Source of the DNA: a virus | DNA: 64,000 nucleotides | Direction: 5' to 3' (one strand) | IMG/VR virus record: IMGVR_UViG_3300044784_000011 | Part shown: piece by piece, positions 3,008 through 62,302 of the stretch | How the letters are laid out: every line of letters starts with the position of its first letter | How positions within the stretch are numbered: position 1 is the stretch's first letter | Notes under the pieces: generated by a model | The model's input: the letters and a program-made list of their open reading frames with translations, nothing else | Told to the model about the DNA's origin: nothing | Database searches by the model: none | Position numbers and translations under genes: made by a program

Positions 3008-3406
3008 GTGGCCGGCAAGGAACGCTTCACCATCACCAACCCGGATGCGCCCAAGGCGGCACTACTCGCCAAGGACCCGTCCGACATCCACGTCACAGAC
3101 GCGGAGTTCATCAACGAGCAGGTGGGTGCGAAGGTCGTCACCCCACGCCAGGTCCAGGTGTGCAAGGTCCTGCTCATGGCCGCCCAGGCAGCCCGGCGCG
3201 AGGACGCGCCCGCACCGAAGGCGACCAAGGCGACTCCCAAGGAGACGCCCAAGGCGGCCGGTCGGGCGAAGGCGTCTGGGAAGCCTCCGGCGGCGAAGAA
3301 GGCAGCCACCGCCAAGGGTCGCCAGCGTGCGGCCCGAGGCTCGCAGGCGGCCGCAAGCACTGCGCCAGCCGAGGCGCCAGAGCCTTCCGCTGACGCGCCG
3401 TTCTAG
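3008..3406 (+). CDS. Small protein with Lys/Ala-rich histone-H1-like tail (putative DNA-binding)
   Basis: GGAGGAGG RBS; C-terminal PKATKATPKETPKAAGRAKASGKPPAAKKAA. Confidence 0.75.
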   Translation: MAGKERFTITNPDAPKAALLAKDPSDIHVTDAEFINEQVGAKVVTPRQVQVCKVLLMAAQAARREDAPAPKATKATPKETPKAAGRAKASGKPPAAKKAATAKGRQRAARGSQAAASTAPAEAPEPSADAPF

Positions 3407-3673
3407 CCGTGGGGTAGCAGCTGCGGGAAGAGGACGACGACGTCACGGCGGGAGGAGGCGAGAGGGATGAGGCAGAACCAGGCAGGATACCCCGGAGGTC
3501 GAGAGACCACCGAAGGCCCAAGCCACGGGTCCTCATCCCTCCGCCTTGATGGCGGCTCCGAGGAGACAACGGAACTCGCTCTGTAAGGGGAAGGCAGAGC
3601 GCGAACCCGAGGATCACCGGAGCCGCTATCTAGGCGAAGCCGTAGCAAGGAGGAGGACGAGCTTGGCCGCTAC
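3406..3673 (+). ncRNA. Candidate structured RNA / 5' leader of the recombination operon
   Basis: Nested stems: 3406-3411/3444-3449; 3456-3472/3531-3546; GGTC-GAGA-GACC GNRA hairpin 3497-3508; 3548-3560/3618-3630; 3577-3583/3595-3601; 3642-3646/3669-3673. Confidence 0.5.
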
Positions 3674-4652
3674 AATGGTCCGTAACTCTGAGCGTAGCGA
3701 CTGGAGACGTTGTCGCAAGCGCTGGGATTGGACGTGGAACCAGGGGCTGAAGGCGCGTCGCGTCAAGACGGCTCTGTGGCTAGGCCAAGGAGTCCACGAG
3801 GCGCTTGCGGAGTTCTATCGCTACAAAGGAAGCAAGAAGCGAGGTCCGCACCCAGCGGAGACCTTTCGGGCATGGGCGGGAGATAGTCAGCGCCAGGCGT
3901 GGACGCACTCTCTTCTCTTCGATGAGGAGGAGCGGGTCAATGCGTCCGACCTAGCGGTGGCTATGCTTGAGGGATATGTGGAGCGGTACGGCCGGGATGA
4001 GCGCGTCCAGGTCATCGCTGCCGAGGACTCGTTTGAGTTGGATATTCCTCACCCAAAGCACCCGTCTATTACTGCGTGTATTTACTGCGGGACCTTTGAC
4101 CTCGTCTACCGCGACCTCGCCACCAATGAGATATGGCTGATGGAGCACAAGACGAGGAAGGCTATCAAGACCTCGCACCTTACGATCGACCAGCAGGCGT
4201 CCGGCTACTGGCTGGCCGCGACCTCTGTGCTCCGCCACAAGAAGCTCATCAAGCCAGACGAGCAGCTGGAGGGAGTCAAGTACAACTTCCTCCGGAAAGC
4301 CTTCGCGGACCCCAGAGAGACTGACGACCAAGGGAGGAGTCTCAACAAGGATGGTTCCATCTCCAAGGTGCAACCATCTCCGTTGTTTCACCGGGAGCCG
4401 GTCTATCGGACTCCGCGCGAGCTACGCTCTACGGCTTTGCAAATTGTTGTAGAGAACTGGGAGATGAACAAGACTCGTCGGGGCGAGCTACCCATCTACA
4501 AGAACCAGACGGAGGATTGCGACTGGCAATGCCCATTCTTCGAGATGTGTGACCTCCATGAGAAGGGGGACGACTGGGAGACGTACCGAGACGAGATGTA
4601 CCATGTGGTCGATCCTTACGAGGACCATCGGCCGAAGACAACGGAGGAGTGA
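3663..4652 (+). CDS. Cas4-like/RecB-family PD-(D/E)XK exonuclease
   Basis: RNSERSDWRRCRKRW N-terminus; GTFDLV...LMEHKT nuclease motif; C-terminal CDWQCPFFEMC completes a 4-Cys staple; TTG start chosen from GGAGGAGG RBS (track ORF starts at 3546). Confidence 0.85.
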   Translation: MAATMVRNSERSDWRRCRKRWDWTWNQGLKARRVKTALWLGQGVHEALAEFYRYKGSKKRGPHPAETFRAWAGDSQRQAWTHSLLFDEEERVNASDLAVAMLEGYVERYGRDERVQVIAAEDSFELDIPHPKHPSITACIYCGTFDLVYRDLATNEIWLMEHKTRKAIKTSHLTIDQQASGYWLAATSVLRHKKLIKPDEQLEGVKYNFLRKAFADPRETDDQGRSLNKDGSISKVQPSPLFHREPVYRTPRELRSTALQIVVENWEMNKTRRGELPIYKNQTEDCDWQCPFFEMCDLHEKGDDWETYRDEMYHVVDPYEDHRPKTTEE

Positions 4653-6194: not shown

Positions 6195-6206
6195 GCGACT
6201 CAGCGC

Positions 6207-6253
6207 AGTGCCCGGCTCGGGAGTAGCGAGGCTGCGAAACCGAGCCGGGCACT
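6207..6253 (+). terminator. Perfect 14-bp inverted repeat hairpin
   Basis: AGTGCCCGGCTCGG (6207-6220) / CCGAGCCGGGCACT (6240-6253). Confidence 0.55.
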
Positions 6254-6263
6254 AGAGTTAACG

Positions 6264-12600: not shown

Positions 12601-12764
12601 TCGCCTTGCCGTTGCGATTCGACCCAAGTGTCGAGTTGCGACGGTTATTAGACCGGATTCGGGGTGGAGATTTCGCAGGTAGCGATTCGTTATCTGCGCA
12701 GGTAGAGACACCAGAGAGGAGGGTCCTAGACAAACTCTTTACTTTTCTTGCACACATAGGGTAG
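12597..12764 (+). CDS. Short hypothetical protein
   Basis: GTGA overlap with the dnaE stop; overlaps a promoter, so may be spurious. Confidence 0.3.
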   Translation: MIALPLRFDPSVELRRLLDRIRGGDFAGSDSLSAQVETPERRVLDKLFTFLAHIG

Positions 12765-12821: not shown

Positions 12822-13169
12822 ATGACGATTACGAAAGCGTCCAGGTCCCGGACGCCTAGCCGCGACGACCAGCTTGCGGGCATGCCTGACGAGTTCGTTG
12901 ACTGCCGCGCCCACGGCCATTGGTGGAAGGTTCAGAGCCGCTGGGGCGCGAAGGTCGCAGGCAACGAATGGGTCGGGTACTCGACTGAGGTCAAGGTCTG
13001 TAAGCGGAACCCGCGCGACCCTTGTAAGGACACCATCGTCTATGACCCCGACTTCGAGGTCTATTCTCGTGTGTCTTACCGGCCGAAGGGGTACAACATC
13101 ACCGGCCAGGGTCGCGCCAACTACCGTCGAGAGGCGAAGCGCGAGAAGTTGCGGAGGAGTTCCACATGA
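12822..13169 (+). CDS. Hypothetical protein (CRxxGHxW ... C ... C Zn motif)
   Basis: GAGGAG RBS; DCRAHGHWW..VCKRN..C. Confidence 0.75.
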   Translation: MTITKASRSRTPSRDDQLAGMPDEFVDCRAHGHWWKVQSRWGAKVAGNEWVGYSTEVKVCKRNPRDPCKDTIVYDPDFEVYSRVSYRPKGYNITGQGRANYRREAKREKLRRSST

Positions 13170-14461
13170 CCGAGACCATCCCACTCGACACCGGCCAACG
13201 ATTCGCGCTCGACCTCATTGCCGACCGGGTGGAGGAAGGTCACCCAGAGACGATCCTCGCCGGTCTGGCTGGGACGGGCAAGACATACGTGGCCGGGCAG
13301 CTTCCTACCGTCCTCGGCGGTGACGTCGCCTTCTGTGCCTACACAGGGAAGGCAGCGAAGGTTCTTCACCGCAAGCTCAAGGGCCAGGAGACCTCGACCA
13401 TCCACGGTCTCATCTACCTCCCGGCGGAGTACCACTGTGCTCCTTGCCCGGAGACGGTCTGGAATCGGATGAGCGACGAGGAACGCGCGGAGTTCCTATC
13501 TGACAATCCCGACACCGATACCGAGAAGGGACCGCCGTGCCACCGTGTCGGCGTTCCTCACCGGGACCGTTGTGCGGAGTGCGGCATCCGCTTCGAGAAG
13601 CGCGATGTGTTACCGCCTTGGGTCTCGGCCATCGTGGTCGATGAGGCGTCGATGGTCGGTGAGAGCGTGTATGCCGACCTCCTCTCCTTTCAGGTCCCGA
13701 TCGTGTGGGTGGGCGACCACGGCCAGCTACCGCCCGTCAAAGGCGGTATCAACATCATGGGCCGCCGGTTCGACGCAGAGCTAACGACCATCCATCGCCA
13801 GGGAGAAGGCTCCGCCGTCATCGACCTCGCCCACGCTGTCCGCTTGTCGGGGCGTATCCCTCAGGGTGAGGTCGGTGACGGCGTGAGGAAGGTCACCGAC
13901 AACTTCTGGGGATACGAGGTCCGCGAGTTCATTGACGGCGTTGCCTGGGACGCGGAGTTGATGATCCTGTGTGCTACCAACAAGACCCGAGTGGGAATGA
14001 ACATCCTCGCCCGGCGCTCGCGCGGGTTCAATCCTGACGAGCCGCAGACCGGTGACCGCGTCATCTGCTTGAAGAATAACAGAGGCGCTGGGATCGTCAA
14101 CGGGAGTACCGGGACGATTCGTGAGATAGGACCAGCGCGGCGCAAGGACGGAAGCGTGCTCCATGGTGCCCGGTACTACGTCGCGAAGATCGACCTGGAT
14201 GGCGAGCGCACCCCGTACGAAGGTCGGATTCACCGGGACCAGTTCAACGCGGAGCGTCCGCTAGAGACGCGAGACGGCTTCGACCTCTTCGACTACGGCT
14301 ACACCATGACGGTCCACAAGGCGCAAGGCTCAGAGGCGAAGAAGGTTGTGCTACTTGAGGAGTACATCGGGTTCTGGCCCCCGGAGACGCAGAAGCGCTG
14401 GTTGTACACAGCGGTGACGCGCTCCTCCAAGGAACTCCTCGTGGTGAGGAGAGGACGGTGA
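13166..14461 (+). CDS. RecD/Dda-like SF1B helicase
   Basis: GLAGTGKT, VVDEASMV, GDHGQLPPV, HRQ, YTMTVHKAQGSE, LYTAVTR. Confidence 0.9.
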   Translation: MTETIPLDTGQRFALDLIADRVEEGHPETILAGLAGTGKTYVAGQLPTVLGGDVAFCAYTGKAAKVLHRKLKGQETSTIHGLIYLPAEYHCAPCPETVWNRMSDEERAEFLSDNPDTDTEKGPPCHRVGVPHRDRCAECGIRFEKRDVLPPWVSAIVVDEASMVGESVYADLLSFQVPIVWVGDHGQLPPVKGGINIMGRRFDAELTTIHRQGEGSAVIDLAHAVRLSGRIPQGEVGDGVRKVTDNFWGYEVREFIDGVAWDAELMILCATNKTRVGMNILARRSRGFNPDEPQTGDRVICLKNNRGAGIVNGSTGTIREIGPARRKDGSVLHGARYYVAKIDLDGERTPYEGRIHRDQFNAERPLETRDGFDLFDYGYTMTVHKAQGSEAKKVVLLEEYIGFWPPETQKRWLYTAVTRSSKELLVVRRGR

Positions 14462-25524: not shown

Positions 25525-25776
25525 GGCCGAGACCACCGGCCGAGACCACCGGCTAGTTGCCATCTACCTGTGACGATGGTGCTGCGAGTACCGCGTACCA
25601 CCGGCGTCCGAATGAGCGTCTTAGGAAGCCTCGCGCGCTATCGCGCGATAAGGCGTAGCGTACGAGCTTCTTTCGTTATTAGGTGGTACTCGGTGGTACT
25701 CGGTGGTACTATTCCCAGGTAAATGCGTGTGCAGATTGGTAAGCCGTCGGTGGTCTCGGTGGTCCTAGGTGGTCTC
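25525..25776. repeat. Convergent iteron-like repeats around a palindrome (candidate replication origin)
   Basis: GGCCGAGACCACC x2 (25525-25550); GGTGGTACT x3 at 10-nt period (25682-25710); GGTGGTC(T/C)(C/T) x3 (25749-25776); TCGCGCG-CTAT-CGCGCGA 25631-25648. Confidence 0.6.
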
Positions 25777-50785: not shown

Positions 50786-51140
50786 GGGTCCGGACTTCGT
50801 GTGGGTGGATCGGTCGCTGTTCGAGAACATTGGTGAGCTTGATCAGAAGATCATCAAGGGCATGGTTGCGGTGATGGAGTATTCCCGGCCGCAGGTCGAG
50901 AACTACATGAAGTCCAACGCGCCGTGGCAGGACCAGACGACCAACGCCCGGAACTCCTTGAGCGCGAGGACTGAGCACGGCGGGACCTCCTCTTCAATCA
51001 TCGCCGCACACGGTGTCCCATACGGCATATGGCTGGAGGTCCGGTTCGGAGGCGTCAACGGAATTATCTTGCAGACAATCCGGGTGATGGGCGCGAGGGT
51101 GATGGCGAACATGCGGACCCTCTTCGCGAGGATGGGCTAG
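50778..51140 (+). CDS. HK97 gp10-like neck/tail-completion protein
   Basis: NAPWQDQTTNAR...HGVPYGIWLE. Confidence 0.8.
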   Translation: MAKGPDFVWVDRSLFENIGELDQKIIKGMVAVMEYSRPQVENYMKSNAPWQDQTTNARNSLSARTEHGGTSSSIIAAHGVPYGIWLEVRFGGVNGIILQTIRVMGARVMANMRTLFARMG

Positions 51141-51545
51141 ATGGCGGCCAAGGCGATGATCCGGACGAAGCTCGTCCTGGATGGCGAGTTCTCTGCGTCG
51201 ATCCCAGATGCACGTCTCTTCAACGCTGGGTCCATCACCACCACACCCGATCTAACCAAGGGCAAGTTCGCTGTTCTTCGGTTCGACCCAGTGATCCCAG
51301 GAATCGGGCCAGTCAACCGGGCGCAGTTCTTCTTGTATGTCTACGACCGTATGGGCCAGTACTCCGCCATCCTCGCAACACTCGTACGAGCAAGGGCGAT
51401 CCTCGAAGGCACAAATCCGATCGACCACGGAGATGGCTGGATCAGCCAGATCAAGTGGCAAGGTGACTCTGGTGAACTGGTCGATGACTCGTGGCGAGCT
51501 TCGGTCCAATTCGCCACGTTCGAGGTAGTCTACAGCGGATCATAG
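51141..51545 (+). CDS. Tail terminator
   Basis: Position before the tail tube; size. Confidence 0.7.
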   Translation: MAAKAMIRTKLVLDGEFSASIPDARLFNAGSITTTPDLTKGKFAVLRFDPVIPGIGPVNRAQFFLYVYDRMGQYSAILATLVRARAILEGTNPIDHGDGWISQIKWQGDSGELVDDSWRASVQFATFEVVYSGS

Positions 51546-52357: not shown

Positions 52358-52811
52358 TCTGCCGTACGCGAGGACCTGGAGTTGGTCAGAGTCCGAAGAC
52401 TTCTCGGAGCTTCGTGGCGACGACCAGACCATCGCCTCGCGTGGCGCCGGTCCTCAGATCGAAGTTGAGCTGGAGAACGGAGGCCTGCCGCTGGAGCCCT
52501 ACAAGCTCATCGCGGGAGGCGCCACGGTGGACACCGGGACGACCCCCAACATGGTCAAGACCTACACGAAGCTGGCGACGGATGCCCGTCCCTACTTCAA
52601 GGTTGAAGGCCAGAGCATGTCAGACTCGGGCGGTGACGTCCACGCGCTCATCTTCCGCGCCAAGCTGACCGGCGACATCGAGGGCGAGTTCGCCGATGGC
52701 GAGTTCCACGTGACCGGCGCGACCGGTAACGGGTTCCCGTCCGCAGAGGCGGCCCACATCGGCAAGCTGTACTCCTTCGTCAACAACGAGACCGTCACGC
52801 CCATCGCCTAG
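52263..52811 (+). CDS. Major tail (tube) protein
   Basis: GGAGG RBS; LPFGIRD, ELRGDD, PYFKVEGQSMSDSGGD; strong codon bias. Confidence 0.85.
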   Translation: MPITTTALPFGIRDTQLRALPAPWTTPGSLVDLPYARTWSWSESEDFSELRGDDQTIASRGAGPQIEVELENGGLPLEPYKLIAGGATVDTGTTPNMVKTYTKLATDARPYFKVEGQSMSDSGGDVHALIFRAKLTGDIEGEFADGEFHVTGATGNGFPSAEAAHIGKLYSFVNNETVTPIA

Positions 52812-52823
52812 GAAGGAGGGACC

Positions 52824-53186
52824 ATGGCCGTACAGACACCGGTGGTCCCTCCTGTCGTGCCCGCCGGCAACCCGGCGTACGCGGCCGTGGGCGCATCCGA
52901 CACCATCCCAGTCGGCTCCACCGGCAAGTACCTCCTCATCGTGAAGAACGCCGGAGGCTCAGCTGACGTCGTCGTCGTGGATGACCCAACCTCTGGGACA
53001 GGTCCTCCCGGCGCAGCTACCCCGATGAACCCAGACCTCTCGCACTCGGTTCCTGCAACGACCGGTGAGCGGCACTTTCTGCTCTCGGCCGAGCGGTTCC
53101 GCGACATCAACGGGAACATCAACATCACCCACTCGTTCCAGACCTCGGTGACGTGCATCGTGTACGGGCCACTGAACGCAATCTAG
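52824..53186 (+). CDS. Minor tail / tube decoration protein
   Basis: GGAGG RBS; beta-sandwich-like sequence. Confidence 0.7.
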   Translation: MAVQTPVVPPVVPAGNPAYAAVGASDTIPVGSTGKYLLIVKNAGGSADVVVVDDPTSGTGPPGAATPMNPDLSHSVPATTGERHFLLSAERFRDINGNINITHSFQTSVTCIVYGPLNAI

Positions 53187-61623: not shown

Positions 61624-61658
61624 GGCGTGTAGAAACTCGCTGAACGTCCCTAGCTCCC

Positions 61659-61724
61659 GCTAGAATCACCCCTAATGGATCGCGTGCGGCTCCTCTGCCT
61701 AACTCCACAAGCGGAGGAGCCGCA
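61659..61724 (+). promoter_or_regulatory. Lysis-cassette promoter (-10 TAGAAT) and 11-bp leader hairpin
   Basis: TAGAAT 61661-61666; TGCGGCTCCTC 61685-61695 / GAGGAGCCGCA 61714-61724. Confidence 0.45.
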
Positions 61725-61750
61725 TTGCCGACCATACCGGGGGTGATAAT

Positions 61751-62302
61751 GTGAGTGAGCAAGGTGGTTTCGATAGACGTCCGGTCCCAGACCCGACGCT
61801 ACTTACAACCGAGCAGCTACTCCGCGAGATTGCCGGAGTTGAGCGTGCAATGGAAGGTCTTCGCGAGCTTCTGTTTGCCAGGATTGACAGCCAGAAAGAT
61901 GTTGAGAATGAGCGGTTCCGGTCGGTAGCTCAGCAGTTAACGCTCGTTGAGCGTCAGCGAGTTGAGCAGAAGGAAGACACTAAGGCAGCCGTGGATGCGG
62001 CGCTGATCGCTCAGAAGGAGGCGGTGAAGGAGCAGACCATTGCCTCGGAGAAGTCGATCGCCAAGAGTGAGGCAGCGACGACGAAGCAACTCGACCAGCA
62101 GGCAGTGACGTTCCGTACCGCGATCGACGGGGTGCTGGTCATCCTCAACGATCTCAAGGAGCGCGTTGGCCGCCTGGAGGCGATGAAGCAGGGCGGCACA
62201 GAAGTTCGCGACCGGTTTAGCCAGGGGTGGGCGGTTGTGCTTGGTGGTGTTTTCGCACTGGTTGGTATTGGCACGCTGATTATCTCCTTGTCTCGTCTCT
62301 AG
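61751..62302 (+). CDS. Coiled-coil protein with C-terminal TM helix (lysis-associated)
   Basis: Long heptad region; single C-terminal TM; directly before the endolysin. Confidence 0.75.
   Translation: MSEQGGFDRRPVPDPTLLTTEQLLREIAGVERAMEGLRELLFARIDSQKDVENERFRSVAQQLTLVERQRVEQKEDTKAAVDAALIAQKEAVKEQTIASEKSIAKSEAATTKQLDQQAVTFRTAIDGVLVILNDLKERVGRLEAMKQGGTEVRDRFSQGWAVVLGGVFALVGIGTLIISLSRL

Follow-up and report, generated by a model that had tools for sequence, protein, structure and literature searches.

A conserved two-domain RNA structure that follows a Lys/Ala-rich gene in an uncultured actinobacterial phage

A long gap ahead of phage recombination genes raises the question of whether it holds a structured RNA and, if so, which of the neighbouring genes this RNA would serve. 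The window analysed here (the whole 64,000-nt stretch of record IMGVR_UViG_3300044784_000011) comes from an uncultured actinobacterial phage, and the runs that contain its DNA are mostly sediment metagenomes. A helicase gene (1057-2910), a Lys/Ala-rich gene (3008-3406, 132 aa), the gap, a Cas4-like exonuclease gene and a gene for a Sak4-like annealing protein follow one another. The exonuclease (3663-4652, + strand), a PD-(D/E)XK enzyme and the first of the recombination block, matched phrog_1218 (E 8e-83) and has relatives in 296 phage records, from Streptomyces, Gordonia, Mycobacterium and Microbacterium phages. A previous sequence-only reading had placed a multi-helix RNA at the head of an exonuclease-recombinase-SSB operon, in a genome with almost no intergenic space. 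PHROGs backed the exonuclease and the Sak4-like recombinase, whereas the gene labelled SSB was without a PHROG family match. The compactness of the genome had been overstated, as other gaps of 70-125 nt lie close to the structured one. Indeed, the gap at 3406-3673 stands out by its size and complexity and not by being structured, since U-less long hairpins with z < -5 also follow other genes, at 970-1035, 6202-6260, 12601-12653 and 61649-61765 (z-score scan of the whole window). Very stable hairpins were also seen within coding regions, at 2428-2496 (helicase gene, z -7.0) and 13810-13888 (gene 13166-14461, z -6.0). At 52805-52850, a ribosome site and ATG are sequestered in a 12-bp stem by a complement lying about 15 nt into the same gene, an arrangement that amounts to a simple translation-damping hairpin.

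The interval 3400-3680 folds at -131.8 kcal/mol, with z values of -5.05 (+ strand) and -3.82 (- strand), and 0/200 shuffles folded as well, in line with the RNA fold that had been proposed. In 7/7 homologs the fold of the + strand is the better of the two, by a small margin in some of them. All the stem arms previously named are present in the sequence where they had been placed; as helices, some held and others did not. Per-domain z values confined the folding signal of the gap to domains B (fold of 3453-3548; z -5.7, pairing probability 0.92) and C (fold of 3546-3633; z -6.6, pairing probability 1.0). The first stem (3406-3411/3444-3449; z -0.3, in-context pairing probability about 0) dissolved into a variable spacer (3406-3449, + strand), which has no conserved helix and differs in length and pairing among homologs. 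Neither the GGC-GAA-GCC hairpin (pairing probability 0.05) nor the final stem (3642-3646/3669-3673; 0.08), which is absent from homologs, was retained. What remains is a two-domain RNA structure at 3454-3630 that is real and conserved, smaller than first drawn and tied to the upstream gene.

Conservation was assessed in close relatives obtained from protein searches, whose exonucleases are 65-89% identical; they provided seven further versions of the gap (loci L015, L016, L018, L021, L024, the latter partial, L247 and L250), from about four phage lineages. Domain B (3454-3547, + strand) is present in every complete homolog. It consists of an outer stem of 16-19 bp, three invariant purine-rich internal loops (3473-3485 facing 3519-3530) and a variable paired tip. 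Its proximal part, outer stem and internal loops, is identical at 50-53 of 55 nt among homologs; four-fold codon sites of the flanking genes are 35-48% identical between distant lineages, so that silent sites are near saturation. The covariation that had been put forward as a check was found: across six sequences, 96.8% of the cells of domain B are paired and six pairs show two-sided changes, as compared with 1.2 in shuffles (0/500 reaching six) and at most one with slid partners. This count comes from an alignment fitted to the structure, and the independent events in B are few, because the three proximal-stem double changes all come from L016. The tip differs in sequence in every lineage, yet it is always paired. 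Its GAGA tetraloop, of the GNRA type and formerly taken as a structural mark, occurs in this strain and in no homolog. The tip also carries, at 3503-3511, one further copy of the GAGACCACC repeat of the presumed origin (25529-25776). This repeat occurs five times in the window for 0.9 expected, the copy in the tip is the only one outside the presumed origin, and domain B of all homologs lacks it.

Domain C (3548-3630, + strand) combines a 13-bp outer stem, a covarying middle that varies on both arms (three two-sided changes) and an invariant terminal hairpin (3579-3599), the loop of which (3585-3593) is G-rich and fully unpaired. This 21-nt tip is invariant in the present phage and in L015, L018, L024, L247 and L250. 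An unrelated perfect hairpin replaces C in L016, and in L250 a B of the L015 type is combined with a C of the L018 type. In L245, whose upstream protein is 53% identical, the gap holds four to five unrelated long hairpins, one of them with the AGGGGAAG loop of domain C. Because of this replacement, this chimera and these unrelated hairpins, B and C are regarded as exchangeable modules. Domain C is nearly identical in L018 and L024 although just 38% of their four-fold sites match, and part of the sequence identity in B and C may stem from recent exchange between lineages.

No described RNA family accounted for this structure. Rfam covariance models gave no match at the gathering score in the window (best E 0.23, all far below thresholds) and none in L015, L016, L018 and L245, as expected of the undescribed RNA that the sequence-only reading had suspected, a view also in keeping with the covariation and the invariant loops. 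A blastn search against phages and plasmids gave no genuine match to the element, and no description of it was found in the literature, within an incomplete search coverage. A covariance model of the element (R1), searched over 611 kb, recovered only its six training loci; judged by this search, B+C is restricted to its own small clade. The motif is absent from Rfam and limited to one small uncultured clade. Gapped-motif searches of viral, metagenome and genome collections returned about 130 matches, none with a flanking stem longer than 7 bp, and these were put down to chance. Two later viral motif scans gave one noteworthy match, L251, and five others due to chance. At L251:8330-8430, in a GC-rich phage that is not related to the present one, a C-rich-loop hairpin precedes one with the G-rich loop of domain C; there, this loop is the apparent ribosome site before an ATG, within a 20-bp hairpin where a Bet-like recombinase gene ends. 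L251 is a lone case retrieved with a 17-nt pattern, and base pairing between its two loops would be possible.

The association of the structure with its neighbours was on the upstream side. The Lys/Ala-rich gene (3008-3406, + strand) encodes a three-helix N-terminal domain followed by a histone-H1-like tail rich in Lys and Ala. No Pfam, PHROG or fold match was obtained for this protein (model pLDDT 83.5; best fold match Z 3.8, none clear). It is likely a nucleoid or DNA-binding protein, the histone-like role being read from composition only. Members of this family share an invariant Gln in the N-terminal domain and frequently end in Pro-Phe or Pro-Tyr, resembling an SSB tail. An iterated profile detected the gene in 74 of 98 loci of the phage family. 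The 100 nt after its stop codon had z < -2 in 31 of 42 sequence-unrelated loci (median -3.3), and control windows from the same 42 loci did so in 4/42 and 3/42. The gene that comes after the Lys/Ala-rich gene and the gap varies, and it is often one other than the exonuclease; in phages that lack the Lys/Ala-rich gene (Fury, P69, ChewyVIII and Cruella), there is no gap ahead of the exonuclease. In the present phage, the first strong stem, B, begins about 50 nt past the stop codon. The structured element thus goes with the Lys/Ala-rich gene ahead of it, and the leader of the exonuclease operon, which it had been considered to be, is not the preferred reading.

Three features recur upstream of the Lys/Ala-rich gene in five lineages: a strong ribosome site, preceded by a small hairpin and a -10-like box. 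The box, TTTACGAT (2947-2954, + strand), contains a TTTACG that is invariant in 5/5 lineages and is followed by AT in four; a sigma-70 scan did not call it, and we infer that it could be the promoter of this gene. The hairpin (2956-2994, + strand), a 5' leader structure before the strong GGAGGAGG ribosome site, has its own z of only -1.5, and its pairing is kept with different sequences (by eye, alignment A5). A GCAGA(A/T)A box at 2918-2924, which precedes the -10-like hexamer by about 25 nt, is also conserved in the five lineages; being too distant for a -35 element, it is possibly an activator site.

Downstream, the exonuclease ribosome site (3649-3656) is mostly unpaired (50-96%) and its TTG start at 3663 (site and start, 3649-3665, + strand) is weakly paired; this start is partly paired in the present phage, L018, L016 and L245. 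An open reading frame from 3546 had been mentioned as a coding alternative, and an N-terminal extension of the exonuclease from this position was discarded: in four relatives this frame does not stay open, being interrupted 6-14 codons ahead of the start led by the ribosome site, and the exonuclease therefore starts at TTG 3663. In L015, a His-rich gene of 63 codons is inserted between the element and the exonuclease (approximately 3070-3260 of this locus), and it takes over the original ribosome site and TTG of the exonuclease. Another possible short ORF, of 39 codons (3467-3586, + strand), is led by GGAGG at 3454-3458 and lies buried in stem B, with its ribosome site and ATG invariant in the 5' arm. 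Its frame is intact in the present phage, L247, L016 (53 codons), L018 and L021, and broken by a frameshift in L015 and L250, where it ends after 30 codons. Its stop falls within the invariant C loop in the present phage, L247, L018 and L021. A conserved peptide found no support, the frame being broken and the peptide kept only where the nucleotides are, and this short ORF is probably not a conserved gene. A leader-peptide attenuator was rejected, as neither the frame nor the position of the stop is conserved.

The position behind the Lys/Ala-rich gene proved to be of wider interest than the motif itself. tRNAs were found there, 22-107 nt past the stop codon, in L204, L226, L243 and L244. The one in L204 (1578-1673), directly after the Lys/Ala-rich gene, is tRNA-like with an odd anticodon arm; it was called by ARAGORN at a relaxed threshold only, and by no Rfam model. 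In phage Papyrus (KF416342), the 1160-nt gap holds the GOLLD RNA RF02032 (190 bits; L009:2495-2954, about 50837-51296 of the record). Among 12 records of cluster R mycobacteriophages, this gap shows 99% conservation; it is unannotated in 11 of them, hypothetical proteins are annotated in it in the JIND1 record, and records of the SEA-PHAGES type do not annotate the RNA. No report of GOLLD in cluster R phages was found in our literature search, the coverage of which was incomplete. In both cultured and uncultured phages, multi-branched structured gaps occupy the same slot, namely in L006:3691-3976 (MrMiyagi), L010:2412-2591 (Troll4), L013:1200-1370 (Leopard), L008:2307-2483 (Damien), L219:821-1010, L205 and L238. 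Some of them have T-loop-like motifs and none of those scanned reached an Rfam gathering score, making them candidate new phage RNAs. Finally, terminal loops of this slot in 41 unrelated loci comprised GGGGA in five and UCCCC in seven (shuffle means 0.3 and 0.5, maxima 1 and 2), an enrichment spotted after inspection of the data; C-rich loops are also present in hairpins after other genes.

From a mechanistic point of view, we propose that B+C is an exchangeable cassette at the 3' end of the upstream message, which it would stabilise or process and so keep more abundant than that of the recombination genes, a proposal to which we give an even chance. A promoter near 2950 would drive a transcript that comprises the small 5' hairpin, the histone-like ORF and then two stable U-less stems. 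Once the RNA is released in a Rho-type manner, or cut at the cassette by an endonuclease, host 3'-to-5' exonucleases would be halted by stems B and C. The upstream message would then accumulate, the exonuclease-recombinase part being made or kept at a lower level, and the internal loops of B and the G-rich loop of C may be the contacts of a protein or RNA that tunes this step. We infer in the same way that the element is transcribed, stabilised or cleaved, and contacted by a partner. Stabilisation or processing is favoured over intrinsic termination because no U-tract follows stem B or C, which the mycobacterial polymerase needed in vitro. No terminator was called in 3400-3700 and neither stem is followed by U-rich sequence, which makes a canonical intrinsic terminator less likely. 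In vitro, hairpins lacking a U-tract caused no termination by mycobacterial RNA polymerase (PMC3993855), although clusters of U-less hairpins have been put forward as terminators from RNA-seq (PMC8355165). Stabilisation and processing by stem-loops are documented for the intergenic stem-loops of the Clostridium cip-cel operon (PMC4423207), known as SRPS (selective RNA processing and stabilisation); like these, the present element is stable, located at the 3' end of an internal gene and evolutionarily linked to that gene. The cassette accounts for the position, the exchangeability and the stability of the element, but not for its invariant loops, which point to a binding partner. The long hairpins behind other genes of this phage and the better fold of the + strand also favour it. 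A plain nuclease roadblock needs neither invariant unpaired bases nor near-invariant stems, which speaks against the cassette, as does the distance of about 50 nt between the stop codon and the first strong stem. Metatranscriptome contigs from three runs cover the Lys/Ala-rich gene with differing ends (3411, 3446 and 3151) at a depth of 2-9 where DNA carry-over is possible, and none covers 3447-3887 at this depth, a region where structured RNA can drop out. The runs had been chosen as containing this stretch, and contigs of such low depth give neither transcript ends nor levels.

Loops that stay invariant while their stems vary are what a binding surface typically shows, and they are in line with a different role, in which B+C would be a small non-coding RNA cargo, co-transcribed from a strong upstream promoter, excised and acting in trans. 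It could serve as a decoy for a host protein or, via its G-rich loop, for RNAs with C-rich loops such as 6C RNA. The tRNA genes and the full GOLLD housed by the same slot argue for it, as do GGGGA and UCCCC terminal loops far above shuffles, and actinobacterial 6C RNA was reported to target unpaired G-rich loops (PMC6486639). However, no promoter-like box or U-tract bounds the element, which is limited to one small clade and resembles neither GOLLD nor 6C nor any other family of Rfam; L016 does without C, and the C-rich loops behind other genes mean that the loop bias may be generic. We consider this cargo role unlikely, while keeping it as the main rival. The fuller version, a family-wide slot for interchangeable RNA cargo from which B+C is excised so that its loops bind and neutralise a host factor, for instance the C-rich loops of 6C, is more doubtful still. 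The decoy role of the G-rich loop toward 6C would be testable, and it is unproven. If B+C were such an excised RNA, GOLLD and this short RNA could be exchangeable in one culturable phage locus.

Control of the exonuclease by a translational leader was also considered, in which ribosomes on the short ORF, or a bound protein, would set access to GGAGGAGG and TTG by a shift of the pyrimidine-rich 3' arm of B or of a small downstream hairpin. The invariant ribosome site and ATG of the short ORF, its stop within the invariant C loop in four versions, the partial pairing of the downstream start and the C-type loop that serves as ribosome site of a hairpin-embedded start in L251 are consistent with it, and the 3' B arm pairs with the exonuclease ribosome site at -18 kcal/mol. 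The native pairing of B is far stronger (-33 kcal/mol) and the exonuclease ribosome site is largely unpaired; moreover, the short ORF is frameshifted in two independent assemblies, its peptide follows nucleotide conservation, and a small gene separates the element from the exonuclease in L015, so that we hold such control to be improbable. Since both strands fold well (minus strand z -3.8), the element might act as single-stranded or cruciform DNA, for example a secondary priming or origin-helper site; loop motifs in both orientations across the family and the GAGACCACC copy in the B tip would fit. The absence of this repeat from homologous B domains, G-U/G-C exchanges that preserve pairing on the + strand only and the RNA genes that otherwise occupy the slot make a DNA element quite improbable. 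The ribozyme-like RNA of the sequence-only reading found no support. Trimming of the upstream message by a self-cleaving ribozyme of a new class would agree with invariant facing internal loops on a variable scaffold, but no Rfam ribozyme matched here or in about 50 related loci, there is no conserved pseudoknot or multi-way junction, and a pattern script run without a positive control found no hammerhead core (CUGANGA, GAAA and three stems) in 3406-3673; we regard it as very improbable. A resemblance to loop A of the hairpin ribozyme is, in our reading, superficial, since the register fails and a loop B is missing. Likenesses to the hairpin ribozyme, K-turn, SRP, T-box and glycine riboswitch were weighed, and none appeared to fit the element.

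The motif itself, confined to a small uncultured clade and most likely doing an ordinary job, is of moderate interest, and the finding of the slot has more to offer. A single site in the genomes of a large actinophage family serves as a slot for structured RNA; this family includes Streptomyces phages Yara and Gibson, Mycobacterium phages Papyrus, Troll4, Damien and MrMiyagi, as well as many phages known from metagenomes. Cluster R phages, which grow on M. smegmatis, offer a culturable system for GOLLD deletion and swap tests.

Several known systems resemble the element in part. Like GOLLD, a phage-borne structured RNA often found near tRNAs, it lies between a Lys/Ala-rich gene and a Cas4-like exonuclease, in a gap identical in placement to that of cluster R mycobacteriophages. 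It differs by its size, about 180 nt in two simple arms, as compared with an Rfam model of more than 400 nt for GOLLD and a gap of 1160 nt in Papyrus. The 3' core of RF02032 gave no match in the window in the same search that gives Papyrus 190 bits, and no cross-match to the variable 5' part was seen with nhmmer (Papyrus 5' part) or cmsearch (R1), one GOLLD locus being compared. 6C RNA (PMC6486639) likewise has two tandem hairpins with homopolymer-rich terminal loops, and C-rich loops are present at the slot in several related phages; the loop of the element is G-rich, the complement of that of 6C, and neither the window nor ten C-loop loci matched the 6C Rfam model. U-less tandem hairpins of Actinobacteria, proposed as terminators (PMC8355165) and disputed (PMC3993855), also form a GC-rich cluster past a stop codon; by contrast, the arms of the element are much longer and interrupted, its loops are invariant and its first stem lies about 50 nt past the stop codon. 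Compared with the SRPS stem-loops of the C. cellulolyticum cip-cel operon (PMC4423207; PMC8219983), the phage element, known from sequence, is made of two irregular arms of 85-95 nt with invariant internal and terminal loops. It shares with them a stable, intergenic location 3' of a presumably highly expressed operon gene, and a tie to this upstream gene in which position and stability are kept while the sequence can change.
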